From: an uncultured Clostridia bacterium | GTDB lineage: Bacteria > Bacillota > Clostridia > TANB77 > CAG-508 | Direction: 5' to 3' | Assembly: GCA_944392805.1 (NCBI GenBank) | Contig: CALXXZ010000001.1 | Span: 253,977-285,976, forward strand | Length of the DNA stretch: 32,000 nucleotides | Part shown: piece by piece, positions 795 through 23,572 of the stretch | How the letters are laid out: the number at the start of each line of letters is the position of its first letter | Numbering within the stretch: position 1 is the first letter of the stretch | Made by a program: the position numbers and the translations under genes | The notes under the pieces: generated by a model | Seen by the model: only the letters and a program-made list of their open reading frames with translations | Told to the model about the DNA's origin: nothing | Database searches by the model: none

Positions 795-2555
795 GTGATA
801 TTAATTTTAGAAAAAGGAAAATTCACGGAAAAAGATTATGTAAGTCCATCTTATTTGAATTTAAATAATCCAAAATATTTAGAAATAGATGAGATTTATT
901 ATTCAGGATTAATTATAGTAAATTATTATAGAGAATATGATGAATTAATATTAAAAACATTAATGGAAACAAATGTAAATATTAATATATCAATATTTTA
1001 TGAAAAAATAAATAATTTAAATGCAATAAAAGAATTAACATATAATATTGGTAATGTGGGATTCGAATTAAAAGAAGGAAAAGAAAATAGACAAGATATA
1101 GATATTGCACTTTTTTCATATAATGATGCAAAATATATTAGAAAAGAAATTCAAATAAATGGTGAAGAAATTTATTATTTATATATTTATTTAAATATTT
1201 TTTCAGAAACTAAAGAGGAATTAGAAAAAAATTTAGATAAAATAGAAGCTTTATTACAAAGTAAAGGACTACAAACAAGAAGGGCAAATTTTAGGCAAGA
1301 ACAATTATTTTTATCATGTTTACCATTAGCAGAAAATAATAAAGATTTAAAAAGTGTTGCTAAAAGAAATATTTTAACAAGTGGATTAGTAAGTACATAT
1401 CCATTTATTTCATCATCTATATTTGAAGAAAGCGGAATTTATTTTGGAAATAATATATATAATAATTCATTAGTATTAATTGATAGATATAATACAGATA
1501 AATATAAAAATGCAAATATGTGTATTTTTGGAACAAGTGGTGCAGGAAAATCTTTTTATACTAAATTATTAATATTAAGAAATACTTTATTAGGAATTGA
1601 ACAATATATAATTGACCCAGAAAAAGAGTATAATAAATTAGCAAAAAATTTAAATGGTACAATTATAAAAATAGGACCAACATCTAATAATTATATAAAT
1701 ATTTTTGATATTAGAAAAGAAAGTATAGAAGAAAATGAGCATGGATATTTGGCAACGAAAATAGGAAAATTAATTGGATTTTTTAATTTAGTTTTTGGAG
1801 AAATTAATGAAGAAGAAAAAGGAATATTAGAAGAAAAAATAATTGAAGTTTATAAAAATAAAGGAATTAATTTTAATGATAAATCTTTATATAAAAAAAG
1901 ACAATTTAAAACTAGTAAAGACATGCCAATACTTGAAGATTTTTATAATATATTAAATGATGAAAAAACAAAAAAATTTAAAATAAAATTAATTCCATTT
2001 ATAAAAGGTTCATTAAAATTTTTTAATAATTATACAAATATTAAATTAAATAATAAATTAATTATTGCAGATGTATATGAATTAGGTGAAGATAATTTAA
2101 AATATGGAATGTATTTATTTACAGATTTATTTTGGGATAAAATAAAAATAAATAGAAAAATAAAAAAAGCAATTTATTTAGATGAAATTTGGAGATTAAT
2201 TGGTGTAACATCTTCAAAAGAAGTTGCAAAATTTATTTATAAAATTTTTAAAACAATAAGAAAATATGGAGGAAGTAGTGTAGCAATTACACAAGATATT
2301 AGTGATTTATTCAGCTTAGATAATGGGACATATGGAAAAAGTATTTTAAATAATTCTAGTATAAAAACATTTTTTTCATTAGAAGAAGAAAATATAAATT
2401 TATTATCTCAATTTTCAAATATTTCAGAAAAAGAAAAAATAGAAATAAAATCTTTAAGAAGAGGGGAGTGTTTAATGTTTGTTGGAAATGAACATATTTT
2501 AATTAATATTGAAGCAAGCGATTTAGAAAAAGAATTAATAGAAGGAGAGGTTTAA
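795..2555 (+). CDS. virB4: VirB4-family T4SS ATPase, main (ATPase) part
   Basis: 586-aa ORF with Walker A GTSGAGKSF, Walker-B-like AIYLDEIW and ITQDISD, typical of VirB4/TrsE. The GTG at 795 overlaps the SD AAGGAG (790-795), so in-frame ATT 804 (8-nt spacing) is a more plausible start. Confidence 0.85.
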   Translation: MILILEKGKFTEKDYVSPSYLNLNNPKYLEIDEIYYSGLIIVNYYREYDELILKTLMETNVNINISIFYEKINNLNAIKELTYNIGNVGFELKEGKENRQDIDIALFSYNDAKYIRKEIQINGEEIYYLYIYLNIFSETKEELEKNLDKIEALLQSKGLQTRRANFRQEQLFLSCLPLAENNKDLKSVAKRNILTSGLVSTYPFISSSIFEESGIYFGNNIYNNSLVLIDRYNTDKYKNANMCIFGTSGAGKSFYTKLLILRNTLLGIEQYIIDPEKEYNKLAKNLNGTIIKIGPTSNNYINIFDIRKESIEENEHGYLATKIGKLIGFFNLVFGEINEEEKGILEEKIIEVYKNKGINFNDKSLYKKRQFKTSKDMPILEDFYNILNDEKTKKFKIKLIPFIKGSLKFFNNYTNIKLNNKLIIADVYELGEDNLKYGMYLFTDLFWDKIKINRKIKKAIYLDEIWRLIGVTSSKEVAKFIYKIFKTIRKYGGSSVAITQDISDLFSLDNGTYGKSILNNSSIKTFFSLEEENINLLSQFSNISEKEKIEIKSLRRGECLMFVGNEHILINIEASDLEKELIEGEV

Positions 2556-2557
2556 TT

Positions 2558-3013
2558 ATTGAAAAAAATAAAATAATATTTTTATTTAATATTAAAAAAA
2601 ATAATATAAATAAAATAATTAAAAAATATAAAAATAAAAAAATATTAAAAATAAATAATTTTTTAAATTTAGAAAAAATAAAAAAATTAAATAAAAAATA
2701 TAATTTAATAATAATTAATAATGAAAAAAATAAAATTAATAATATAAAAAAATATTTTTTAATTAGTGATGAAATAATTATTTATATAAAATCACAAATT
2801 TATTATATTAAAAAAATATATTTTTTAATAAATAAAATGGAAAATGAATTAAAAATAAATAAAAATAAAATAATATTAATAATAGAAAAAAATAACAAAA
2901 AAAATGGAATCTATTATTTGGTAATAAAAGAAATTTTTAGAAGATATGAAAAAAGGATAGATAAAAAAGAAAATAGAATTGGGAAAATTTTTAAAAGTAG
3001 AAGGGAAAAATAA
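2558..3013 (+). CDS. Hypothetical K/N/I-rich basic protein (~151 aa) with a non-canonical start
   Basis: The frame is open 2513-3010 with stop TAA 3011-3013, in sequence that is mostly A and T, where TAA should recur every few codons by chance. SD GGAGAGG 2544-2550 is followed by ATT 2555/2558. TTG 2559 is one nt out of frame and is followed by an A7 run. The ORF track missed it because the first ATG is late. Confidence 0.5.
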   Translation: MEKNKIIFLFNIKKNNINKIIKKYKNKKILKINNFLNLEKIKKLNKKYNLIIINNEKNKINNIKKYFLISDEIIIYIKSQIYYIKKIYFLINKMENELKINKNKIILIIEKNNKKNGIYYLVIKEIFRRYEKRIDKKENRIGKIFKSRREK

Positions 3014-3030
3014 CACTATTTTTGTTCTGA

Positions 3031-3420
3031 TGTATATCATTAAAAAAATGAGAAAGATAACGGAAATAAAGAGATTGAGGCTATAAAAGTTGAAGAAAAC
3101 TTTACAAAAACATTTGTTAAAAATTCAATCGAGATGGAAAACTATAGTCATTAAACACATCTATGTTTTAAAAAACTTGATAATTAGGCATTTTATAGAT
3201 AAGAAAGAAATATAAAAATACATAAAACTGGTAATAAATGTAATAAAAATAACAGGAAGTGATTAAAAAAGGCCATGTAGAACTCTAGGGGCAGGCTAAA
3301 AGTGTAAAAAAAGTAACTGAATTGAATTTTTGATTGAGATGATACCAGTTAAGACGTATTCAGCAGAGAAATCAGAGGAGTTATTAAAAGTAGAAAATAT
3401 ATACCAAAAGTAAATATGGA
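3031..3420 (+). repeat. Copy 1 (most diverged) of the conserved mixed-composition segment of the tandem array
   Basis: Shares AACGGAAATAAAG (3059-3071), ..AAAAACTTGA.AA.TAGG.. and AACTCTAGGGGCAGGCTAAAAGTGT (CTAGGG at 3285) with copies at 4681-5165 and 5641-6130. No ORF. Confidence 0.55.
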
Positions 3421-3904
3421 AAAATTAAAAAATAAAAATACCATAAAAATGAAAAAATATTTTTTAAATTGATGGAAAAAAAGATTAATTAAAAAAATAT
3501 ATATAATTAAAAATAAAATATTTAAATATTATTTTAAAAAATAAATTAAAAATATTTGTAAAAAAAATAATTAAATAAAATTATTAAAAAAATTATGAAA
3601 TTAAAAAATATTTTTCAAGAATTAATTAATAAAATTATTATTATAATAAAATAAAAAATTGGTTAAATAAAAAATTTAATTAAATAAAGTTTTATTTAAT
3701 TAAAAATAAAAAAAATAATCTTTATAATAAAAAAATAATTTTAATAAAAAGAATAATTAAATAAATAATAAAATTAAATAATATTAAAATAATATTAAAA
3801 TAATAAAATTATTTATAAAAAATTAGTAAAAAAATAAAGCAAAATAAAAAATAGTAATAAATTAAAAAAATATAAAAGATTTTTTTATAAAGATATAATA
3901 CTGA

Positions 3905-4235
3905 AACAATAAAAAAAGCAGATGGATTTTTTGTATGAGAAACTTAGAAAAAAGAGAGGAGCAAATATAATGAAAAATAAAAGATACAGAAGATATTAAA
4001 AAAAGAAGATAAGACTAAATATGTAAATATATGTAAAAAAATAGTTGAGATTTGGTAAAAAATAGGTCTCAACTTACTAGGGACAAGAGAAAACTTTCAA
4101 AATCTTAGATAATTTCATAATATATTAAAAAAGTAAATAGTATCTCTGGGAAAATTTAGTTTTATGATATTAAAAAACGAACTCCCAAAAAAAGCTTTAA
4201 ACTTTTTTTAGGAAAATTTAAAATAAAAATTTAGA
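3905..4235 (+). repeat. Copy 2 of the conserved segment (carries a ~200-nt internal deletion relative to copies 3 and 4)
   Basis: AAAAAAAGCAGATGGATTTTTTGTATGAGAAA.. and the core ATGTAAATATATGTAAAAAAA..TTACTAGGGACAAGAGAAAACTTTCAAAATCTTAG (4021-4108) align with copies 3 and 4. No ORF. Confidence 0.7.
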
Positions 4236-4680
4236 AAAAAGTTTTTTTAAAAAAATTTAATTAAATGAAAAAACAAAAAAATAAAAAAGAATTTAATAAA
4301 AAAATTTTAAATAATATTAAAAAAATAAATAATTAAAAAAATAAATTTAATTTATTAATAAAAATAAAATATTATAGTTTATAAAAAAATAAAATAATAA
4401 ATAAACAAATAATAAATAAATAAAAATTAATAATAAAAAATAAATTTAATCAAAAAAAAAATAAAATTAAATTAAAATAAAAAAATCAAATAATATTAAA
4501 TTAAATAATATTATTTAATTTTAAAATAAAAAAATGGAAAAAAGATTTTTTTTAATTTTAATTAAATGAAAAAAACAAAAAATTATTAAATAAAATAAAA
4601 AATTATTAAAAATATAATTTTAATTTATTAATAAAAATGAAATATATAAAATAAAAAAATAATTTTAAAAAATTTGAAAT

Positions 4681-5170
4681 AAAAAAAGCTGATAAATTTT
4701 TTATATGAGAAAATTAGAAAAAAGTAAGAGACAGAGATAATGAAAAATGAGTATATTTATATTACTAAAATTAAGAATGTTAAAATATGAAATATAGCGG
4801 AAATAGAGGGTTATAGCTTGAAAATATGGAAGCAAAATCAATAAAAATTTGTGTAAGAATAACGCTAACAAAAAGAAAATTAAAGGGGAAAGAATTGCTT
4901 TTTTATGGAAAACCTTGAAAAATGAGGAAATACAGAGGATCATAGTATAAAAAGCAAAAGAAAGTAGATGTAAATATATGTAAAAAATAGTTGGATTTTT
5001 GCCAAAAAGAGAACGCAATTTACTAGGGACAAGCGAAAACTTTTAAAATCTTAGAAATTTCATATTATATAAAAAATAAAATAGACTTTCAGAAAGAATA
5101 TAATGATATGTTATTCAAAAATAGACTTACAAAAAGTGGTCAAATTTTTATAAAAAAATGCAAAATAAAA
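4681..5170 (+). repeat. Copy 3 of the conserved segment
   Basis: Collinear by eye with 5641-6130 over ~490 nt at roughly three quarters identity. Core at 4968-5054, CTAGGG at 5023. Confidence 0.75.
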
Positions 5171-5640
5171 AATTAAAAGAAAATTTTAATTAAAAATAAT
5201 AAAATAAAAATTTTTCATAAATAAATAATTTAAAAAATATAATTTAATTTTATTAATAAAAATAAATTATTATAGTTAATAAAAAATAAATAATAAATAA
5301 AACATAAAAATAATAAAAAAGAAATTAAAATAATAAATAAAATATAAAAAAATAATGAATAAATAATAAATAAAATTTAATAGTAAAAAAATAAATTTAT
5401 TTTCAAAAGAAAATTAAATAATAATAAAATAAAAAACAAATAAAATTAATTATAAAAATTTAATATAAAAATAAAAATTAAAAATACATCAAAAAATAAA
5501 TAGAAAAATGGTAAAAAAAATTAAAAATAAAATATGGAAAATAAAAAATAATTATTAAATTTTTTTAAATTAAAAAAGGATAAAAAATTTCCAAAATAAA
5601 ATCTAAAGAAAATTTCCAAAAATGGAAAGTTAAGGAGAGA

Positions 5641-6130
5641 GCAAAAAAAGCTAAAGAATTTTTGGTATGAGAAAAATGGAAAAAAGTAAGAGGCATAGAT
5701 GATGAAAAATGAAGGTATTTATATCACTAAAATATAGAATGTTAAAATATAAAATATAGCGGAAATAAAGGCTTATGGTCCAAAATTATAGAAGCAAAAC
5801 TAATAAAAATTTATGTAATACCAGTCCTAACAAAAAGGAAATTTTACAAAAGAAATTAGATGTTTCGTGGAAAAACTTGAAAAATAGGGGTATACAGAAG
5901 ATAGTAAAATAAAAACAGAAGAACATAGATGTAAATATATGTAAAAAAAACTTAGAAATTTACAAAAAAGAGAGCACAACTTACTAGGGGCAAGCGAAAA
6001 CTTTTAAAATCTTATAAATTTAATATTACATTAAAAAAGTAAAGAGTCTTTCAGAGAAAATTTAATGATATGATATTCAAAAACGTACTTACAAAAAATG
6101 GTCAAATTTTTATTGGAAAATGTAAAATAA
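5641..6130 (+). repeat. Copy 4 of the conserved segment
   Basis: Collinear with 4681-5170. Core at 5929-6015, CTAGGG at 5984. Confidence 0.75.
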
Positions 6131-6378
6131 AAAAATTTGGAAAAAAGTTTTAAAAAATTTTTTAATTAAATGGAAAAAAACAAAAAAATAAAAAAAATTA
6201 AATGGAAGAATTTTTTAATAAAACTATTTTTATAAATAATTAAAAAATAATATTTAATATTTTTAATTAAATTAAATATTTATAAATAATTAAAAATATT
6301 TAAAATAAAAAATAAAAATAAAAAACTTTTTAAATTAAAAAATAAATAATAAAAAATAAAATTTTAGGAGGAAAAATA

Positions 6379-7083
6379 ATGGAATTAGAAAATACAATAA
6401 ATAATAATATGGAAATAGAAAAAGAGCAAAATAAATTTTTAAATAGTACAATAGGAAAAGCAATAAATGCAGGAATAGATATTGGGCTAAGAGCAATATT
6501 ACCAGATTTAATTGAAAATCAGATTATAGATATAAAAGATGCTTTAATAGAAAATGGATTAAAAGGAGCAATAGATAGTGCAGTTGAAAATGCAATAAAC
6601 TTTGGAAAAAGTGTAACAGGAATATTTACTGGAGAATTTCAAAATATGTCTCAAGTAGAAACAGCAATAGGAAATGGAGGAATATTAGATACAATATCAA
6701 ATGTAGTAGAAAATGTACTTGATAAAGCATATGAAAATGGAAAAATAAATTATACTGTTAATAATTTAATTAGAAAAGGAAAAGATGTTATTTTAAATAA
6801 TGTATCAAATAATATAAAAAATGAATTAGATTATCAATCAAATTCCATAGAAAAATTAAATAAATATATAGATAATTGGAAAGATTATTATAATCAAAAA
6901 GATTTTTCTGGAATGGAAAAAGAATATAATAAAATGAAAATTCAAATAAAAAATATATTACCTATAGAAAATACAATAAAAGAAGTAAGAAAAGTTGAGA
7001 ATTTACACTTATTAATAAAAAATAACGGAAAAAATTTTGATGTAACTGATTCAGAACTTAAATTAGCAGAAAATTTAAGTTAA
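6379..7083 (+). CDS. Hypothetical protein (234 aa)
   Basis: Clean ORF with a strong SD (TAGGAGG 6365-6371) and ATG 6379. I recognise no motif. A hairpin terminator follows. Confidence 0.7.
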   Translation: MELENTINNNMEIEKEQNKFLNSTIGKAINAGIDIGLRAILPDLIENQIIDIKDALIENGLKGAIDSAVENAINFGKSVTGIFTGEFQNMSQVETAIGNGGILDTISNVVENVLDKAYENGKINYTVNNLIRKGKDVILNNVSNNIKNELDYQSNSIEKLNKYIDNWKDYYNQKDFSGMEKEYNKMKIQIKNILPIENTIKEVRKVENLHLLIKNNGKNFDVTDSELKLAENLS

Positions 7084-7086
7084 AAT

Positions 7087-7111
7087 AAAAGAGAATACTA
7101 GATTCTCTTTT
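7087..7111. terminator. Bidirectional hairpin terminator between convergent genes
   Basis: AAAGAGAAT (7088-7096) pairs with ATTCTCTTT (7102-7110) around loop ACTAG, with A/T runs on both sides. Confidence 0.6.
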
Positions 7112-7463
7112 ATACTATTTCTTCATTATCAAATTTTTTACAAAAATCACTTGAACATAACACTATATGGTAAATAAAATCAGATGTTGTTTGAGAGTTA
7201 AGTGATAAAATATTATTAATTTTCTGTATAGTCTCATTACCAGGTCCTTTTCCGAATAATAAATAATCAGCAGAAGCACCAGTATATCTAACAACTTTTC
7301 TTAATGTTCTAACACTAAGTGCACGTTCTCCTCTTTCTATTTGACCTAAAAAAGAATCAGTAATATCAATTTTTTCTGAAAATTCTTCTCTAGTCATTTT
7401 CATACTTTCACGTATACCGCGTAATCTTTCTCCAATATCAATATCGTCTTGATTATATTGCAT
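7110..7463 (-). CDS. XRE (Cro/C1)-family helix-turn-helix transcriptional regulator
   Basis: IGERLRGIRESMKMTREEFSEKIDITDSFLGQIERGERALSVRTLRKVVRYTGASADYLLFG is a typical HTH_3 domain. Confidence 0.8.
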   Translation of the reverse strand: MQYNQDDIDIGERLRGIRESMKMTREEFSEKIDITDSFLGQIERGERALSVRTLRKVVRYTGASADYLLFGKGPGNETIQKINNILSLNSQTTSDFIYHIVLCSSDFCKKFDNEEIV

Positions 7464-7555
7464 GCTACCACCTCTGAAAAATTTTTTACATTATATATCG
7501 AAATTTGTCAACATATAATGGGCGGAAAGCATATATTTTTTATATGCAACATATT

Positions 7556-8329
7556 TTAGACAGAATATTTGTTTAAAAAATCATTAGAAATTTCTAAAAT
7601 ATATTTAACTTGTTTTTTTACAGTATCATTTGAGAAATATTTATAAATTCTATTTGTAAAATTATCCAGATATTTTTTCTCTTTTAAAAATTTTAATGAA
7701 AAACCAAAATTCAAGTCAAAAATATATGCATAAAATATAGGAATTTGGTCAGAATTTGTTTTTATATTACTATAATTTATAAAATGATTAATTATAAAAT
7801 CATTCATTATAGAATCACTTATTGGTTCACAATTAAAATCAGAATACCAAAATATACTTGGAAAATCATATTCACATATTGTATAAAATATATCTAATTT
7901 ATCAGCATCTCTTATTATTTCTGAAAATAGCAGTTCATCATCATTTAAATTTTTATCAATTTTTCCTTTATTATGATTAAGAATTGCTAATTTAATAATT
8001 TTTTTATATTTTTCTTCTACATTAAAATTATCAATTAAATTTTCGTCAAATAATATTTTTACACTTAATTCAGCATGATTAATAGAAATTTTATCATTAA
8101 ATGTATTATACATTTCTGCTTGTTTAAATCTTCCTATATCATGAAATAATCCTATTAATTCAGCTAATTTTACTTGTTCTTCATTAAGATGTAAATTTTT
8201 AGCGATTTTTTTGCTCATTTCTGCAACTCTTTTTATATGATCTATTTTTAATTTTATTCTGCCTTCATTTGGATTAAATTGTGAAACATATTTATCAAAT
8301 TCAATATAAGCATTTTCAATATTTATCAT
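7556..8329 (-). CDS. HD-domain metal-dependent phosphohydrolase
   Basis: H..RV (DHIKRVAEM), LIGLFHDIGRF, INHAELS, ILNHN and IRDADKLD give the His/Asp pattern of the HD superfamily. Confidence 0.75.
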   Translation of the reverse strand: MINIENAYIEFDKYVSQFNPNEGRIKLKIDHIKRVAEMSKKIAKNLHLNEEQVKLAELIGLFHDIGRFKQAEMYNTFNDKISINHAELSVKILFDENLIDNFNVEEKYKKIIKLAILNHNKGKIDKNLNDDELLFSEIIRDADKLDIFYTICEYDFPSIFWYSDFNCEPISDSIMNDFIINHFINYSNIKTNSDQIPIFYAYIFDLNFGFSLKFLKEKKYLDNFTNRIYKYFSNDTVKKQVKYILEISNDFLNKYSV

Positions 8330-8469
8330 TTTTACCTCCGAATAATATTATAGGAGATAGTTAGAAAAATGTCAAAAAAATATAGTTAAAAACTTTTTTA
8401 AAATATTAATTTATTATTGCCATTTTTTTTCTTTTAGAGTACAATGAAATGGAAAGAGAGGTAATGAAA

Positions 8470-17452: not shown

Positions 17453-18463
17453 TTATATTTTTTTTCTAAATCTCAAATCATCACCAAAGAAATAATAAAT
17501 ATCATAAAAGCCTGCGATACGAGAACCAATACGTTCTTCATAACTTTTAAAAATATTATTTATATTCAAATTTGTAGAAATAATAGTTTTAGTAACTTTA
17601 TTATTTAGGTTAAGTAATCTAGTATTCAAAATAGTAAATAACTCACTTAATTTCATACTATTTAAGCACTCTGTGCCCAAATCATCAATAATAAGTAAAT
17701 CAGCTTCTAAGACATTTTTGTAAAAAGCCTCTTGATTAGCATTTTTATATTTATTCATTTTTTCATCAATAACAGTTTCTAGTAATACAGGAGCAGTTTG
17801 ATAAAGAACATTTTTGCCTTTTTTAATTAATTCATTAGCAATGCAATTAGACATAAAAGTTTTTCCAAGGCCAGTATTACCTGTAAACAATAAATTTTTA
17901 TGCTCGGGACTGTCAAAATTTTCCACAAATTCAATGCACTTTTGTTTAATTGCTAACATATTTTGTCGAGGAGAAATATTCATTTTATACTTTTCTGGTT
18001 CAGCCTTATCAGAAAAAATATTAGCATTAAAAGTATCAAAATTCTCATGTTTAAGATTAGAAATATTAGATTTATTATAAGAAATATCTAATAATTTTTG
18101 CTTTAAGCAAGGACAAAATGAAGAACCATGGCCTTCATTTTGAATATATCCTGTATCTTTACATATTTTACATTCATAATTAGGTTCTAAAAAATCATCA
18201 GGAATATTATTTTCCTTTAATATTTTAGTTTTTCTATTTTTTAATTCAATGACATTTTGATTTAGGCTATCTAATGAAGCTGAGCTTCCTTTTAAAATGC
18301 TTTTTACAGTATTTATAGCATCATTATTTAACTGATTTTCTATTTCTTGTAATTCAGGAAATTTTGCATATAAATCAGTTTTACGTTTTTCTAAATCAAG
18401 TTCAGCTTTACGTTTTTTTTGTTCATATTCTAATAATAAAGTTGATAAAATTTCATTAGCCAT
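17453..18463 (-). CDS. DnaC/DnaI-family AAA+ helicase loader
   Basis: Walker A LLFTGNTGLGKTF, Walker B LLIIDDLGTE, and an upstream CKICKDTGYI...CPC zinc-ribbon-like motif. Confidence 0.8.
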   Translation of the reverse strand: MANEILSTLLLEYEQKKRKAELDLEKRKTDLYAKFPELQEIENQLNNDAINTVKSILKGSSASLDSLNQNVIELKNRKTKILKENNIPDDFLEPNYECKICKDTGYIQNEGHGSSFCPCLKQKLLDISYNKSNISNLKHENFDTFNANIFSDKAEPEKYKMNISPRQNMLAIKQKCIEFVENFDSPEHKNLLFTGNTGLGKTFMSNCIANELIKKGKNVLYQTAPVLLETVIDEKMNKYKNANQEAFYKNVLEADLLIIDDLGTECLNSMKLSELFTILNTRLLNLNNKVTKTIISTNLNINNIFKSYEERIGSRIAGFYDIYYFFGDDLRFRKKI

Positions 18464-19451
18464 TAGAGTCTCCTTCTACATTAGGTTCAATTCCAGAATT
18501 TGCATATAAAAATGCTAAATTATCATAATTTCTTTGGTCAAAAGAAGCTTTCGCAACTTGTTTTTCCAATTGTTTTGTATCTTTCTTTTGTTTATTACGT
18601 TGCTCTATAAAAGCAAGAATTTCATTTGGAGTCTTAAGATTTCTATCATGCCAATCTGTAATAATATTATTTATATATTCAAATGTTGGATTAGCTTTAA
18701 AAGTAGTTCTTTTTAAAGCTATTTCTATTATATTTAACTCATATCCAAAATCAATAACCCATTTTTCAATATAAGCTTCTTCATATTGAGTAAGTGTTTG
18801 TTTTCCAAGTTTTTTTGCAATAGTTTTTTTGATTTTAACAAGTTTTTCTTGTTTTTGAGAATATAATTCTAAGTCATTCCATGTCTTTATATTGTTATTA
18901 CCCCAAGCTTCTGCAACTGTTTGAATATAATTTTTGTGTAATGCAGAACGACTGTAGCAATAATCAAAAAGAGCTATCATAACTTGGTCATCAAAATTAT
19001 ATTTTGTGAACCATAAATCTATATCATTATACCATGATGGCCCCATAATTCCTTGGAAATAAGAATTATTGATATGATCAATAACCTTTGCTCTAGCTTT
19101 ATTTTTTGCAATATCTGCAACTTTTTCAGGAGAAGCTGTTAGGTTTGGTTTATATAATTTATGAAGAGTTTGTTCTTGTAAATTTGTTATAATATATCCA
19201 TTTTCTTTTCTTACTATTAATCCATTAGATTCTAAGTATGATATTCCATCATTTATATCTTTTAATGGTAATTCTAATTTTTTTGATAAATCATTTATTC
19301 TTACATCTTTGTTATATTTTGATAAAAACATCAAATATAAATAAATTTTTACACTATTTGATGGCATATTTGATAAGTATTCTGCAAAAAAGATGTCAGG
19401 GACAACTGTTTCAGAGAATAATAAAGGTAATTCAGGTTGTTCTAATTTCAT
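18456..19451 (-). CDS. DnaD-domain (DnaB_2/DnaD-like) replication initiation protein
   Basis: N-terminal winged-helix-like region plus a C-terminal DnaD-type repeat (..YEEAYIEKWVIDFGYELNIIEIALKRT..NYINNIITDWH..). GGAGG 19464-19460, then ATG 19451; the ORF-track start 19466 contains the SD. It overlaps the dnaC-like start by 8 nt. Confidence 0.7.
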   Translation of the reverse strand: MKLEQPELPLLFSETVVPDIFFAEYLSNMPSNSVKIYLYLMFLSKYNKDVRINDLSKKLELPLKDINDGISYLESNGLIVRKENGYIITNLQEQTLHKLYKPNLTASPEKVADIAKNKARAKVIDHINNSYFQGIMGPSWYNDIDLWFTKYNFDDQVMIALFDYCYSRSALHKNYIQTVAEAWGNNNIKTWNDLELYSQKQEKLVKIKKTIAKKLGKQTLTQYEEAYIEKWVIDFGYELNIIEIALKRTTFKANPTFEYINNIITDWHDRNLKTPNEILAFIEQRNKQKKDTKQLEKQVAKASFDQRNYDNLAFLYANSGIEPNVEGDSNG

Positions 19452-19474
19452 TTTACTTTCCTCCATTTTGTCAA

Positions 19475-19502
19475 ATTATATCATTATGTGGAAAAAAATC
19501 AA
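19475..19502 (-). promoter_or_regulatory. Candidate extended -10 promoter for the dnaD-like/dnaC-like pair
   Basis: On the minus strand: TTGATT (19502-19497), 16-nt spacer ending in TGA, TATAAT (19480-19475). Confidence 0.45.
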
Positions 19503-19509
19503 GTCAATT

Positions 19510-19794
19510 TTAATATTTTTTAAACAAATAAATTTTTGTGCTAAATATATATTTTAACACATATTTTAGTACATCAATAAAAGGTTCGCCATTAAGACCT
19601 AAAATACTTAATAAAGTAATAGGGAAGGCAAGGGATATTAGTATAAATATTTTGATATTCCAATCATCTAAAAATAGATTTAGAGTGGAAAAAATTACAA
19701 AATACCATACGATATTAAAAATTAAAGTTGAATAAGGAATAAAGCCAAAAATTTTATTTTTAAAACTATAATTTTGTGGAATTATAAATTTCAT
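19510..19794 (-). CDS. PrgI/VirB3-like small T4SS membrane protein
   Basis: 94 aa. MKFIIPQNYSFKNKIFGF.. is followed by two hydrophobic helices. It sits next to a VirB6-like gene. Confidence 0.5.
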   Translation of the reverse strand: MKFIIPQNYSFKNKIFGFIPYSTLIFNIVWYFVIFSTLNLFLDDWNIKIFILISLAFPITLLSILGLNGEPFIDVLKYVLKYIFSTKIYLFKKY

Positions 19795-19805
19795 GTCGCT
19801 CCTTT

Positions 19806-20678
19806 CTATTTTTTAAAAAAGTTATTCACATTTTGAGTAAAAGTTGTGGAAACTCCACCGATAAATTCGCGTACAAAAGAATTTGCTTTTATAAGTGAAT
19901 GAATTGCACCTATGTAAATAAATTTTGTAAGTAAATTTTCAGAAGAATAGTCCATAGAAAACATAATTAGTAAAACAATAGAAACAATAATTTGTATAAA
20001 AAGTAAAGAAAATATATTGCGTACCCATGCTTTAAAAAACCAAGAAGTATTTTGTAAAAGTAATGATAAAAATGCAAAAGGTGTTAATAAAACAAAAATT
20101 TTTATCATAACATATCTAAATGAATATGTAAAAACAAGATTAAGTAAAGACATAGTTAATGTTGCTTTAATTATACCATCTAAAGAAAATACATCAATCG
20201 AGGCAGTATCTATAGCTAGGAAATTGTTTATATTTAAAATTAATTCAGAAAAACAAATATTTTTATGAAATAATATTTCTCCAATTTCTCTTATCGCAAG
20301 AGAAATAATAGATACAATGTTTAATAATTGCTCAATTATAAAATAAGAAAAATTTATACATATACAAAAAATTATACACTTAAAAACAAATTGAGTAGGA
20401 GATTCAACTTGATTATATGTGAAATGTGAAAACAAATATTTTATTGCATAATATAAAATAAAACCGAATAATAAAGAATTTGCAATTAAAAGTAGTCCAT
20501 TTGAAGCAGAAGTACCTAGAATTTTTTCAAAATAAGAATCATTTATAATATCAGAACTTATAAAAGTAATATCATCAAGAACTTCATATAATTTATTATC
20601 GATAGATGCAAATAAATTTCCTAAAATAGTATTAATAGTATCTATTATAGTAGAAGTTATATTTGAATTATTTTCCAT
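19806..20678 (-). CDS. VirB6/TrbL-like polytopic T4SS membrane protein
   Basis: ~290 aa with at least six predicted TM helices, positioned between VirB2-like and VirB3-like genes. ATG 20678 follows AGGTG. Confidence 0.5.
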   Translation of the reverse strand: MENNSNITSTIIDTINTILGNLFASIDNKLYEVLDDITFISSDIINDSYFEKILGTSASNGLLLIANSLLFGFILYYAIKYLFSHFTYNQVESPTQFVFKCIIFCICINFSYFIIEQLLNIVSIISLAIREIGEILFHKNICFSELILNINNFLAIDTASIDVFSLDGIIKATLTMSLLNLVFTYSFRYVMIKIFVLLTPFAFLSLLLQNTSWFFKAWVRNIFSLLFIQIIVSIVLLIMFSMDYSSENLLTKFIYIGAIHSLIKANSFVREFIGGVSTTFTQNVNNFFKK

Positions 20679-20687
20679 AAAAAACAC

Positions 20688-21005
20688 CTAACCAATTAAT
20701 GATTGAATAGCTGATAGAATAAGGTCAACAGCTAATATAAAACCATAAGAAAACAAAGAACCTGTTATCAACTTTTTTCCAACTCTAATTTTTTCTTCAT
20801 CTCCAAAACTAAATTTTCTCATAAGAGCTCCTGTACAAACAGCAACTGCAGCAGCAGGAGTGGAAATTTTTATTATCCAACTTTCTATATCTTCAAAAGC
20901 ATCATTTAATTTATTAACAAGTTTTGGAGTTGCTGCAAAAGACATATTAGTAAATATTAATAAAATAGACAAAAACAAAATAGTAGTAAATAAAATTTTT
21001 TTCAT
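20688..21005 (-). CDS. TrbC/VirB2-like pilin-type protein
   Basis: Signal peptide (..TNMSFA/A), then a ~75-aa mature part with two TM helices separated by a basic loop (RKFSFGDEEKIRVGKK). This is the VirB2 topology. Confidence 0.55.
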   Translation of the reverse strand: MKKILFTTILFLSILLIFTNMSFAATPKLVNKLNDAFEDIESWIIKISTPAAAVAVCTGALMRKFSFGDEEKIRVGKKLITGSLFSYGFILAVDLILSAIQSLIG

Positions 21006-22684
21006 AAATCCTCCTTTTTGAAATATGGAAACATTTTTAATTTTGATGGTTTTAGTATTTTTGAACCATCTGATAAGAATGAAAGACAGGTAAATGTTTC
21101 CAATTGTTGTGTGAAAAAATTTGTGTCAAAAACATAATCTTTTTGAACGTAAGTATTTAAACTTTCTGTAATATTTGAATCTTTTGAATTTAAAGAATTT
21201 GTAATATAATTAAATCTAGTTTCTCTAGAATTCTCAGAAATGCTAGTAGAAGTCTGTAACTTTTCTTCTTTTCCTAATTGTTTTTGAGCTTCTTCAATTG
21301 TAAAAATATCATCAGTTCTAAACCAAAGTTTATTAATTAAATTCTGGGTAATAACCTTAACTGCAGTTTCATCTTTTAAAGTATTTTTTAAAGAGGAATA
21401 ACTTTGGGTACATACAATATTAATACATTTGGCTTCACGGCTTAGTGAGAAAAAATCAGCATCTGTTTTTGTAACATATTCCGCATATTCATCGCAAATA
21501 AATGCAGAAGGTTTTACCTTATTATGAGATAAATTGTACATAACTTCTGATTGAAAATCTAATTTCAAATATGCAGCAATTATTTTTGAAAGATTTTTAT
21601 ATTCAGCAATATTCATATTTAAGACAACGATTTTTCCGTTAGATAACATTGAAGAAAAACCTTTAAAATTTAAGTCCTCTTTTTTGGGACAAAAAGTTTG
21701 TGAAATATAATAATCTGAAATAAAAACATTTGTAATTCTAGTAATTTCTGATTTTAAAATTGCTAAAGTACGTGAATCTAAAGAATTAAATTCTTTTTCA
21801 AAAAATTCCAAGGCGGTGTTTAAATCATAAATTTCACTATGTGAAAATTTAGAATTATAAAATAAATTTCGTAGTTTTTCTATTTTCAATTTATAATAAT
21901 TAGGTTCAGTAATTAATTTATGAAGTTCAGTAAATGTAACATATCCATCATTATATAATCTGCAAAGCTTTATACATTCTACTAAAATTTGTTCGGCTTT
22001 ATCGAGCCAATATGATTCAGAATTATTTTCAGAAAATAGTAGTAGAATAGTTTTTAACCTATTTGCTAAAATGCTAGGTGAGAGATGTGGTTTATGAAGC
22101 GGATTATATCTGATTTTTGATTTAAGACTTATTTCAATAATATCTTTTTCTAATCCATATTTGGAGGCAATTTTCTTTACTTGATTGAAATAATTTCCTT
22201 TTACATCTAAAATTAAAATTGCAATTTTATCTGAATGCTGAGAATTATATTTTAAAATCTGTTCAGTAAATGGATACATTGCAGAACTTGTTTTTCCAGT
22301 ACCAATTGTTCCAGTTATTAAAAAGTTTTGATATAGACCTATTTCTGGCAAATAAATAGGTAGTTGGGAAGAAAACTCTTGTCCGATCAATAATTTAAAA
22401 TTCGAGTTGTAAGGAGTAATAAATGAACGATTTTTAGTATTTCTGGGGAATACATTTAATCTGGAAAAAATGGTATTAATCAAAATAAAATTGGAAAAGA
22501 TATAAGTAATAATAAAAGAAATTTTTATATATTTCCATAATAAAGGATTATCGGAGCAAATATCGAATATATGTATTCCATAAGGAATAACAACTTCTTC
22601 TGCATTAAAAATTGGATTAAAAATTTTGTACGCGCAAAAACAAGAAATACATGTGTACAAAAATGTGAAAAATAACTTTTTTAT
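21002..22684 (-). CDS. virD4: VirD4/TraG/TcpA-type type IV coupling protein
   Basis: Walker A GTIGTGKTSS, ILDVKGNY, and FICDEYAEY (Walker B-like). The frame stays open upstream of the ORF-track TTG (22660) back to GGAGG 22696-22692. ATA 22684 or ATT 22687 at SD spacing would add an N-terminal TM helix (KKLFFTFLYTCISCFCAYKIF). Confidence 0.8.
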   Translation of the reverse strand: MKKLFFTFLYTCISCFCAYKIFNPIFNAEEVVIPYGIHIFDICSDNPLLWKYIKISFIITYIFSNFILINTIFSRLNVFPRNTKNRSFITPYNSNFKLLIGQEFSSQLPIYLPEIGLYQNFLITGTIGTGKTSSAMYPFTEQILKYNSQHSDKIAILILDVKGNYFNQVKKIASKYGLEKDIIEISLKSKIRYNPLHKPHLSPSILANRLKTILLLFSENNSESYWLDKAEQILVECIKLCRLYNDGYVTFTELHKLITEPNYYKLKIEKLRNLFYNSKFSHSEIYDLNTALEFFEKEFNSLDSRTLAILKSEITRITNVFISDYYISQTFCPKKEDLNFKGFSSMLSNGKIVVLNMNIAEYKNLSKIIAAYLKLDFQSEVMYNLSHNKVKPSAFICDEYAEYVTKTDADFFSLSREAKCINIVCTQSYSSLKNTLKDETAVKVITQNLINKLWFRTDDIFTIEEAQKQLGKEEKLQTSTSISENSRETRFNYITNSLNSKDSNITESLNTYVQKDYVFDTNFFTQQLETFTCLSFLSDGSKILKPSKLKMFPYFKKEDL

Positions 22685-23302: not shown

Positions 23303-23378
23303 GGGCTATTAGCTCAGGTGGTAGAGCACTTGACTTTTAATCAAGTTGTCCCGCGTTCGAGTCGCGGATAGCTCACCA
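23303..23378 (+). tRNA. tRNA-Lys (anticodon UUU)
   Basis: Cloverleaf read by hand: acceptor GGGCTAT/ATAGCTC, anticodon arm CTTGA-CTTTTAA-TCAAG, T arm CCGCG-TTCGAGT-CGCGG, encoded CCA. Confidence 0.9.
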
Positions 23379-23379
23379 A

Positions 23380-23407
23380 GAATTCTAATTGGAAACAATT
23401 AGAATTC
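23380..23407 (+). other. Perfect 12-bp hairpin with a GAAA loop between tRNA genes
   Basis: GAATTCTAATTG-GAAA-CAATTAGAATTC. Confidence 0.7.
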
Positions 23408-23416
23408 AATATTTAA

Positions 23417-23491
23417 GGCCCCGTGGTCAAGAGGTTAAGACACCGCCCTTTCACGGCGGAGTCATGGGTTCGATTCCCGTCGGGGTCACCA
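23417..23491 (+). tRNA. tRNA-Glu (anticodon UUC)
   Basis: Acceptor GGCCCCG/CGGGGTC, anticodon arm CCGCC-CTTTCAC-GGCGG, T loop TTCGATT, encoded CCA. Confidence 0.9.
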
Positions 23492-23495
23492 CAAC

Positions 23496-23572
23496 GCCAC
23501 TTTAGCTCAGCTGGCCAGAGCACCGCACTTGTAATGCGGGGGTCCCCAGTTCGAATCTGGGAAGTGGCTCCA
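23496..23572 (+). tRNA. tRNA-Thr (anticodon UGU)
   Basis: Acceptor GCCACTT/AAGTGGC, anticodon arm CCGCA-CTTGTAA-TGCGG, T arm CCCAG-TTCGAAT-CTGGG, encoded CCA. Confidence 0.9.

Follow-up and report, generated by a model that had tools for sequence, protein, structure and literature searches.

Probable decayed tandem copies of a MinD/ParA-like ATPase gene in a long array free of plus-strand reading frames in an uncultured Clostridia bacterium

What occupies the longest non-coding stretch of a gene-dense piece of a Clostridia genome? The window analysed here is a 32,000-nucleotide (nt) stretch of DNA from an uncultured Clostridia bacterium (GenBank contig CALXXZ010000001.1), and the feature in question (window positions 3014–6378) is an array of repeated units lying between a gene for a VirB4-like ATPase and the gene for a conserved protein of 234 residues (p234). 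A preliminary description had put forward two readings, namely decayed gene duplicates or a family of noncoding RNAs (ncRNAs) or cis elements. The first is now the better supported, having been shown in related genomes, while the ncRNA part of the second fell away, with neither an Rfam match nor a structure behind it. From sequence comparison and by analogy with relatives, we consider it probable that the window's array consists of decayed, internally deleted tandem copies of a MinD/ParA-like ATPase gene.

The architecture of the array is as the preliminary description had drawn it. An open reading frame (ORF) scan of 3014–6378 found no ORF of at least 60 residues apart from 4701–5018 on the minus strand, and all six frames are saturated with stop codons. 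Its GC content is 14–16%; together with the short ORF that precedes it, the region (2556–6378) spans 3.8 kb at 14% GC. A repeat finder and a MAFFT alignment resolve four head-to-tail units, each made of an island of about 23% GC followed by an A/T spacer of about 4% GC. The motifs used as anchors recur where they had been placed: CTAGGG at 3285, 4077, 5023 and 5984, GGAAATA(A/G)A at 3062, 4799 and 5761, and a 27-nt motif at 4255, 4556 and 6160. The islands contain a core of 67 nt, composed of the 17-mer TGKHAATAWWTGTAAAA, 37–39 nt and YTAGGG. The plus strand of the array is purine-rich, with an excess of A over T and of G over C, as in plus-strand coding DNA.

All units lie on the plus strand. 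Unit 1 (island 3014–3432; core 3229–3296, consisting of TGGTAATAAATGTAATA, 39 nt and CTAGGGGCAGGC) is the most diverged copy; the core profile R1, trained without it, recovered it at 3224–3328 with E = 1.3e-8. After spacer 1 (3433–3877, ∼4% GC) comes unit 2 (island 3878–4237; core 4022–4088, TGTAAATATATGTAAAA, 38 nt, CTAGGGACAAGA), which matches units 3 and 4 in its ends and core and has lost some 180–200 nt from its interior, close to the 200 nt reported earlier; a hairpin at 4043–4074 is peculiar to it. Spacer 2 (4238–4674) holds TTAATTAAATGAAAAAA motifs at 4255 and 4556 that can be read as a stop codon plus ATG AAA AAA. Unit 3 (island 4675–5164; core 4969–5034, TGTAAATATATGTAAAA, 37 nt, CTAGGGACAAGC) and unit 4 (island 5575–6143; core 5930–5995, TGTAAATATATGTAAAA, 37 nt, CTAGGGGCAAGC) have the full-length form and are 78–85% identical to each other over 4675–5208 and 5636–6170. 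They are separated by the low-GC spacer 3 (5165–5574), and unit 4 is the closest to p234. Spacer 4 (6144–6378) has a start-like motif at 6160 and ends in the AGGAGG ribosome-binding site of p234. The A/T halves of units 2, 3 and 4 are homologous to one another, as none of 200 dinucleotide shuffles scored as well. Mis-assembly, which had been raised as a danger with such repeats, does not account for the array, since an independent Logan assembly contig (run ERR4096597) is 100% identical to window 2428–9663 and related strains share the same layout.

Comparison with relatives indicates where such DNA could come from. A scan of one genome per species gave 80 loci (identified here by L-numbers) from low-GC metagenome-assembled genomes of uncultured gut Clostridia, with VirB4 70–96% identical; L114 and L002 are counted as one array haplotype. 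The order VirB4-like gene, gap, p234 is kept in about 60 loci, and in the complete genome OZ007016.1 the genes run dnaA, dnaN, recF, gyrB, VirB4-like, MinD/ParA-like ATPase, p234, gyrA. In most relatives at 70–75% identity the gap is filled by a single ORF of 300–480 residues, rich in lysine, asparagine and isoleucine (9–17% GC), that joins a receiver-like N-terminus to a MinD/ParA P-loop domain. The gap measures 0–40 nt in most relatives at 80–84% identity; it is 3–6 kb long and ORF-free in the window, L002, L003, L110, L114 and L118, and in L024, L037, L043 and L067 a stretch of 3–6 kb lies downstream of the intact gene. The array is absent from most genomes in which the ParA-like gene is intact, and in most of those that have lost the gene it is gone too. 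Array expansions of this locus arose repeatedly and independently. Elsewhere they occupy L003 11750–16090, L019 6400–7150, L037 12821–16752 and L043 12908–17557, with up to seven units and 5.8 kb.

The ORF directly upstream of the window's array (2558–3013, plus strand, 151 codons) is probably, to judge by a profile match, a truncated remnant of the MinD/ParA-like ATPase gene. In hmmsearch it aligned to positions 240–374 of a 414-position profile that had been built from 38 intact gap genes (E = 3e-7, with 66 bits of composition bias). It has no match in Pfam or NCBIfam, and its 151 residues contain no Walker A motif (GxxGxGK[ST]). At the nucleotide level it is 94.5% identical to its L110 ortholog, and the differences are mainly non-synonymous. 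The ORF seems to start at ATT, as does a second gene of the operon at 254, each immediately after a good ribosome-binding site, a hint that the organism regularly initiates translation at non-canonical codons. Two earlier proposals about the ORF did not hold. The A/T halves of the units had been thought homologous to it, but the resemblance does not rise above composition (between 10 and 110 of 200 dinucleotide shuffles scored equally well). Nor is the repeat a small ORF plus a downstream segment, for the recognizable coding motifs sit in the mixed-composition islands and not in the A/T halves.

The origin of such arrays can be read directly in the four sister loci whose parent gene is still intact (L024, L037, L043 and L067). 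Two boxes recur in their units, TTAGGCAT(T)AAA and GTTTACATAT, with a constant spacing of either 55–56 or 66–67 nt. A composite motif, YTAGG[CG]-N-GTTNACATA, occurs in the array units of all four and also, as in-frame codons, in the intact gene that immediately precedes each array. Two loci without arrays contain it as well, namely L036, again in frame in the intact gene, and L046, and it is found nowhere else in the 1.5 Mb of loci searched. Within the gene, TTA GGC ATT AAA encodes L-G-I-K and AGT TTA CAT encodes S-L-H, in the context NLLGIKDL...(17 residues)...NSLHIVGNK. R2, a sequence-only profile built from the sister-array units alone, matches the coding regions of L037 (E = 9e-9), L024 (2e-6), L036 (3e-6, a locus outside the training set), L043 (2e-5) and L067 (2e-4), and the distance from the gene motif to the first unit is about one array period. 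Because the composite motif lies in frame in the gene, R2 matches the coding regions and the spacing is that of the period, the sister arrays are shown directly, at the level of sequence, to be tandem copies, now decayed, of the gene's 3' part together with its downstream A/T-rich tail. The alternation of 55–56 and 66–67 bp between the boxes had been considered as helical phasing, a signal of DNA geometry; this idea was dropped once the boxes turned out to be codons, and the difference is reinterpreted as an 11-nt indel between decayed copies.

The window's array is of a second type, represented also by L110, L114/L002, L118, L003, L010 and L019. For its units we infer a gene origin from one profile match, from position, from a colinear reading of motifs and from analogy with the sister arrays. 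The profile match is that of R1 to the intact gene of L071, an ungapped alignment of 79 nt scoring 18.5 bits (E = 0.002 in 1 Mb); the matched DFDILNNSLHTILGVKKY coding segment reads F-D-I-L-N-N-S-L-H-T-I-L-G-V-K-K-Y-S-E-K-I. R1 also matches the corresponding coding segment of L065 with E = 0.5. The window's array resembles the sister arrays in position, orientation and the layout of islands and spacers, with the probable remnant of the gene directly upstream. The coding-type excess of A over T and of G over C on its plus strand fits a gene origin as well. Read directly, the long units show in gene order a GAGAGGAG-like ribosome-binding site, ATG AAA AA(T/A), AGC GGA AAT AGA GGG, which gives a Walker-A-like reading, and CTA GGG. 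In unit 1, GTA AAA AAA GTA ACT GAA (VKKVTE) is comparable with VKKYSE of the gene.

If the window's array did arise from the ATPase gene, unequal crossing-over or slippage in an extremely A/T-rich, low-complexity gene would have produced head-to-tail copies, whose reading frames would then have been lost. The parts encoding lysine, asparagine and isoleucine would have drifted to nearly pure A/T and become the spacers, while segments that once encoded conserved motifs would persist as the islands of mixed composition. In the window's lineage the parent gene itself would have been reduced to the 151-codon remnant.

Several observations weigh against a gene origin for the window's units. Codon-block matrices derived from 37 intact genes and scanned blindly over the array gave nothing above shuffles. 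Chained composition-aware alignments of the four units with the 37 genes gave mean z scores of 0.5–0.7 in the forward direction, against 0–0.3 for the reverse complement; uniform and composition-aware local alignments have little power even on positive controls. Protein profiles searched against all six frames of the array gave no match. R2 does not match window-type arrays either, so no segment common to the two array types can be detected; if both derive from the gene, their source segments differ. Over nearly its whole length, R1 also matches L071 13832–13926, inside the p234 gene, with 16.5 bits (E = 0.009 in 1 Mb). This match recurs in no other p234 gene and we treat it as chance, but its similar strength shows how marginal the E of about 0.002 is. 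The islands, at 20–23% GC, are richer than the intact parent genes overall (9–17%). Finally, YTAGGG and the 17-mer are kept although the rest of the unit sequence is scarcely more alike than random DNA and mutation in this host is biased toward A/T. Simple neutral decay does not predict this retention, given that YTAGGG is present in 24 of 25 islands with the 17-mer fixed 37–39 nt away. The core is better conserved than dead DNA should be: this genome pushes unconstrained DNA to 4–8% GC, and runs of G should be the first to go.

The conservation of the core beyond this genome, as predicted from the window alone, is clear. Over six array haplotypes (the window, L110, L114/L002, L118, L010 and L003), the 17-mer stands 37–39 nt upstream of YTAGGG at 24 of 26 sites, usually with 0–2 mismatches, compared with 2.8% of random anchors in the same arrays. 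The islands scored for YTAGGG were defined by GC content, with about 0.07 occurrences expected per island, and the motif is almost never seen outside them; L019 holds two more core-bearing units. The core persists in L003, L010 and L019, where VirB4 is only 80–84% identical. A perfect core (TGTAAATATATGTAAAAAA then ...AAGCNAAAANTTTTAAAAT) occurs in the window, L114, L118 and L010; it belongs to the unit nearest p234 in the first three, the L010 contig being cut. The core contains two TG(T/G)WAA half-sites 10 bp apart, and the direct repeat TGTAAA-N4-TGTAAA occurs nowhere in the 32-kb window outside the array.

This persistence could reflect gene conversion, a divergence inflated by indels, or selection on a secondary role at the level of DNA. 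One possible form of the last, which we regard as unlikely though worth stating, is that a gene-derived core has been exapted as a repeated sequence-specific DNA element, a candidate binding-site array or regulatory region for p234 and the type IV secretion system (T4SS)/ParA-like module. A cis-element explanation would likewise have the core as a composite protein-binding site, with the array serving as a centromere-like or anchoring site for a ParA-type/T4SS module or as regulatory or promoter DNA of p234, and we hold it to be unlikely. The fixed spacing of 17-mer and YTAGGG, their near-constant presence in islands, their survival where VirB4 has diverged, the perfect core next to p234 and the confinement of the direct repeat all speak for it, as do a ParA-type gene adjoining the locus and a nearby origin. 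Against it, most genomes with an intact ParA-like gene lack the array, as do most that have lost the gene. The array shows no sigma-70 geometry, and promoter-like sites are fewer than in shuffles. The conserved boxes of the sister arrays are simply conserved codons, and between closely related genomes the units change at roughly the rate of synonymous sites.

Candidate partners for such a site fared no better. The predicted fold of p234 is all-α (predicted local distance difference test score, pLDDT, of 80) and has neither a neighbour in the PDB nor a DNA-binding fold, which led us to set p234 aside as a DNA-binding protein. A nearby gene for a helix-turn-helix (HTH) protein does not co-occur with the arrays and was likewise rejected as the array's partner. 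No DnaA box (TTATCCACA with at most one mismatch) lies in 2556–6378, which rules against a replication origin of the oriC type; the 13 matches elsewhere in the window are at chance level.

A conserved core with fixed internal spacing, on a purine-rich strand and in units of a single orientation, is also what an ncRNA might show, whether each island encoded one member of a tandem small-RNA family or a part of one large RNA. The array is not a structured RNA, and we consider that any ncRNA encoded by the islands is improbable. A search of 2500–6450 against Rfam 15, which the preliminary description had suggested for the large RNAs ROOL, GOLLD, OLE and raiA, found no match to these or any other family at the gathering threshold or with E up to 5. 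RNAalifold, given alignments of five and of 15 cores drawn from four or five arrays, predicts no pairs. Islands of 500 nt fold with z scores of +0.1, +1.8 and +0.25 relative to shuffles, and the scores of 14 among 15 separately folded cores range from −1.3 to +1.5. The sole outlier is window unit 2 (z = −4.4), whose eight-pair stem had been pointed out from the sequence; the hairpin itself is real (−18.1 kcal/mol), but its conservation is not, for the stem is lost even in the L110 ortholog (z = −1.1). That stem and a second candidate are 55% and 66% paired over 15 cores, far below a real helix. Taken together as a two-helix model they have 59.5% of cells paired, where shuffles give 51.7%, but the model was derived from one of the sequences counted. 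No plus-strand terminator is present in the array.

The rates at which the array changes also bear on the decay of gene copies. Between the window and L110 the islands are 89–95% identical and the spacers 93–94%, the latter with more indels, and third codon positions of VirB4 are 88.6% identical. Over short times the array evolves about neutrally, which counts in favour of gene decay. Over the distance to L002, where VirB4 third positions remain 90% identical, the islands are only 71–75% identical, near the 69% given by shuffles. L114 and L118 have VirB4 genes 99.3% identical in nucleotides and 100% in protein, yet their p234 genes are 88% identical in nucleotides and their arrays differ in unit number and sequence. 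Unit number is four in the window and L002/L114, five plus a variant in L110 and five in L118. What lies between the conserved flanks, the array with p234, is therefore hypervariable, probably through recombination and rapid turnover of indels in A/T tracts.

Such hypervariability next to a fast-diverging gene, in strains as close as L114 and L118, might be expected if the units were silent cassettes, a recombination substrate that diversifies p234 in the manner of MgPa or pilS. We regard this as very improbable, since the islands are unlike p234 by tblastn, blastn and profile search and the lone R1 match in the L071 p234 gene is not repeated in any other. The islands likewise show no homology to VirB4, to the ORF encoding its N-terminal part or to the HTH gene, and their 5' ends share in alignment just 11–12 nt of resemblance with the VirB4 3' end and gene junction.

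A mobile origin, in which the units would be remnants of small mobile elements or tandem Xer/dif-type integration modules, has one point in its favour: when the XerD arm (TTATGTAAACT) of the Bacillus subtilis dif sequence (PMC3025954) is reverse-complemented, the box AGTTTACATAT agrees with it at ten of 11 positions. This likeness is explained by the box being a run of ATPase-gene codons that reads S-L-H-I in frame. A conserved second arm is missing, no recombinase is encoded in the window, and the element is found at this locus only. A profile of three units run with nhmmer gave no matches beyond the window/L002 clade, BLAST against plasmids returned compositional matches only, a metagenome scan for the core gave 28 matches, all attributable to chance, and two viral scans likewise gave chance matches only. 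The codon run largely refutes the mobile-element reading, and we give it almost no credence.

On the left of the array, the VirB4-like conjugation ATPase of the CD1110 family is split into two plus-strand ORFs. The first, 254–790, starts the operon, begins with ATT after AAAGGAGG and encodes the N-terminal part (positions 2–173 of NCBIfam conju_CD1110, E = 1e-11); the second, 795–2555, matches Pfam AAA_10, P-loop_TraG and CagE_TrbE_VirB and the NCBIfam family with E = 3e-90. On the right, p234 (6379–7083, plus strand) has more than 2000 homologs and no match in Pfam, NCBIfam or PADLOC. It diverges much faster than its flanks, with amino-acid identity of 79–84% where VirB4 retains 96–97% and the HTH protein 96.5%. 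Most public contigs with p234 homologs are only 1–3 kb long, as if assembly from short reads regularly came to a stop at these arrays. Past gyrA, a T4SS-like set on the minus strand (17453–22660) comprises genes for a VirB2-like pilin, a VirD4-like coupling protein and DnaD-like and DnaC-like proteins. It is syntenic with gyrA in many species and in a complete relative is flanked by gyrB and gyrA, at a distance of about 6 kb from dnaA. The VirB4-like and T4SS-like genes look like a domesticated origin-proximal secretion or transfer system.

Other features of the window are of separate interest. Between the HTH gene and gyrA, some 7.5 kb (7556–14900) are not present in the close relatives L110 and L118–L121, and this stretch is therefore probably an inserted island. 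It encodes an HD-domain protein with Cas3-HD-like matches, a predicted AAA-ATPase with a PD-(D/E)XK domain and an FGE-sulfatase-like protein with a pilin-type N-methylation motif, as well as a reverse-transcriptase region. In the latter, an RT-14 RNA (RF02921; 14186–14328, plus strand) is a full-length Rfam match of 118 bits about 480 nt downstream of a reverse-transcriptase gene (RVT_1) seemingly split into two overlapping ORFs, and a MutS domain-I fragment of 145 residues is encoded just upstream of the split gene; the ORFs of this region are 12265–12702, 12695–13051 and 13029–13706. A tRNA cluster at 23303–23572 contains Lys(TTT), Glu(TTC) and Thr(TGT).

The analysis removes a false lead, in that the longest non-coding stretch of the window is not a new large RNA. 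In its place it points to a recurrent hotspot in a large uncultured lineage of low-GC gut Clostridia, where an A/T-rich MinD/ParA-like gene is kept, deleted or expanded into decaying tandem copies within a conserved origin-proximal T4SS-like gene set. The core is a concrete candidate for coding sequence exapted into a cis element; should that be true, selection would be preserving it in seven or more array haplotypes of a group of uncultured gut Clostridia that is widespread.

Among known systems, a dif/Xer site or that of an integrative mobile element exploiting Xer (IMEX) has 28–31 bp with two inverted arms about a 6–8-bp centre, unlike the single arm-like box seen here, which is a run of codons. 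Silent cassettes such as those of Mycoplasma genitalium MgPa and Neisseria pilS are also non-coding repeat arrays adjoining a fast-diverging gene, but the units here are not homologous to the adjacent variable gene. Large or tandem ncRNAs (ROOL, GOLLD, OLE and raiA; LhrC and Qrr) share with the array a long ORF-free stretch in a gene-dense region, repeated units and a conserved core; the array differs from them in lacking an Rfam match, helices that are conserved or covary, a thermodynamic signal and terminators. Partition centromeres (sopC of F, parC of R1 and parS clusters) are likewise origin-proximal direct repeats of one orientation beside a ParA/MinD-type ATPase gene. Their period is tens of bp, compared with 600–950 bp here, and their binding protein is encoded beside parA, whereas the neighbour here, p234, has no predicted DNA-binding fold. 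In addition, arrays are missing from most genomes that carry the ATPase gene, and the boxes here admit a reading as former codons.

There remains the tandem duplication and pseudogene decay known from reduced, A/T-biased genomes, the comparison that underlies our preferred reading of the window's array as decayed copies of the ATPase gene. Bacteria usually delete dead DNA quickly, whereas here 3–6 kb persists in several lineages and the 67-nt core is far better kept than its surroundings. In other respects the likeness is close: head-to-tail copies in one orientation beside the parent gene, with frameshifts, stop codons, internal deletions and drift toward A/T, and with a copy number that varies among close relatives.

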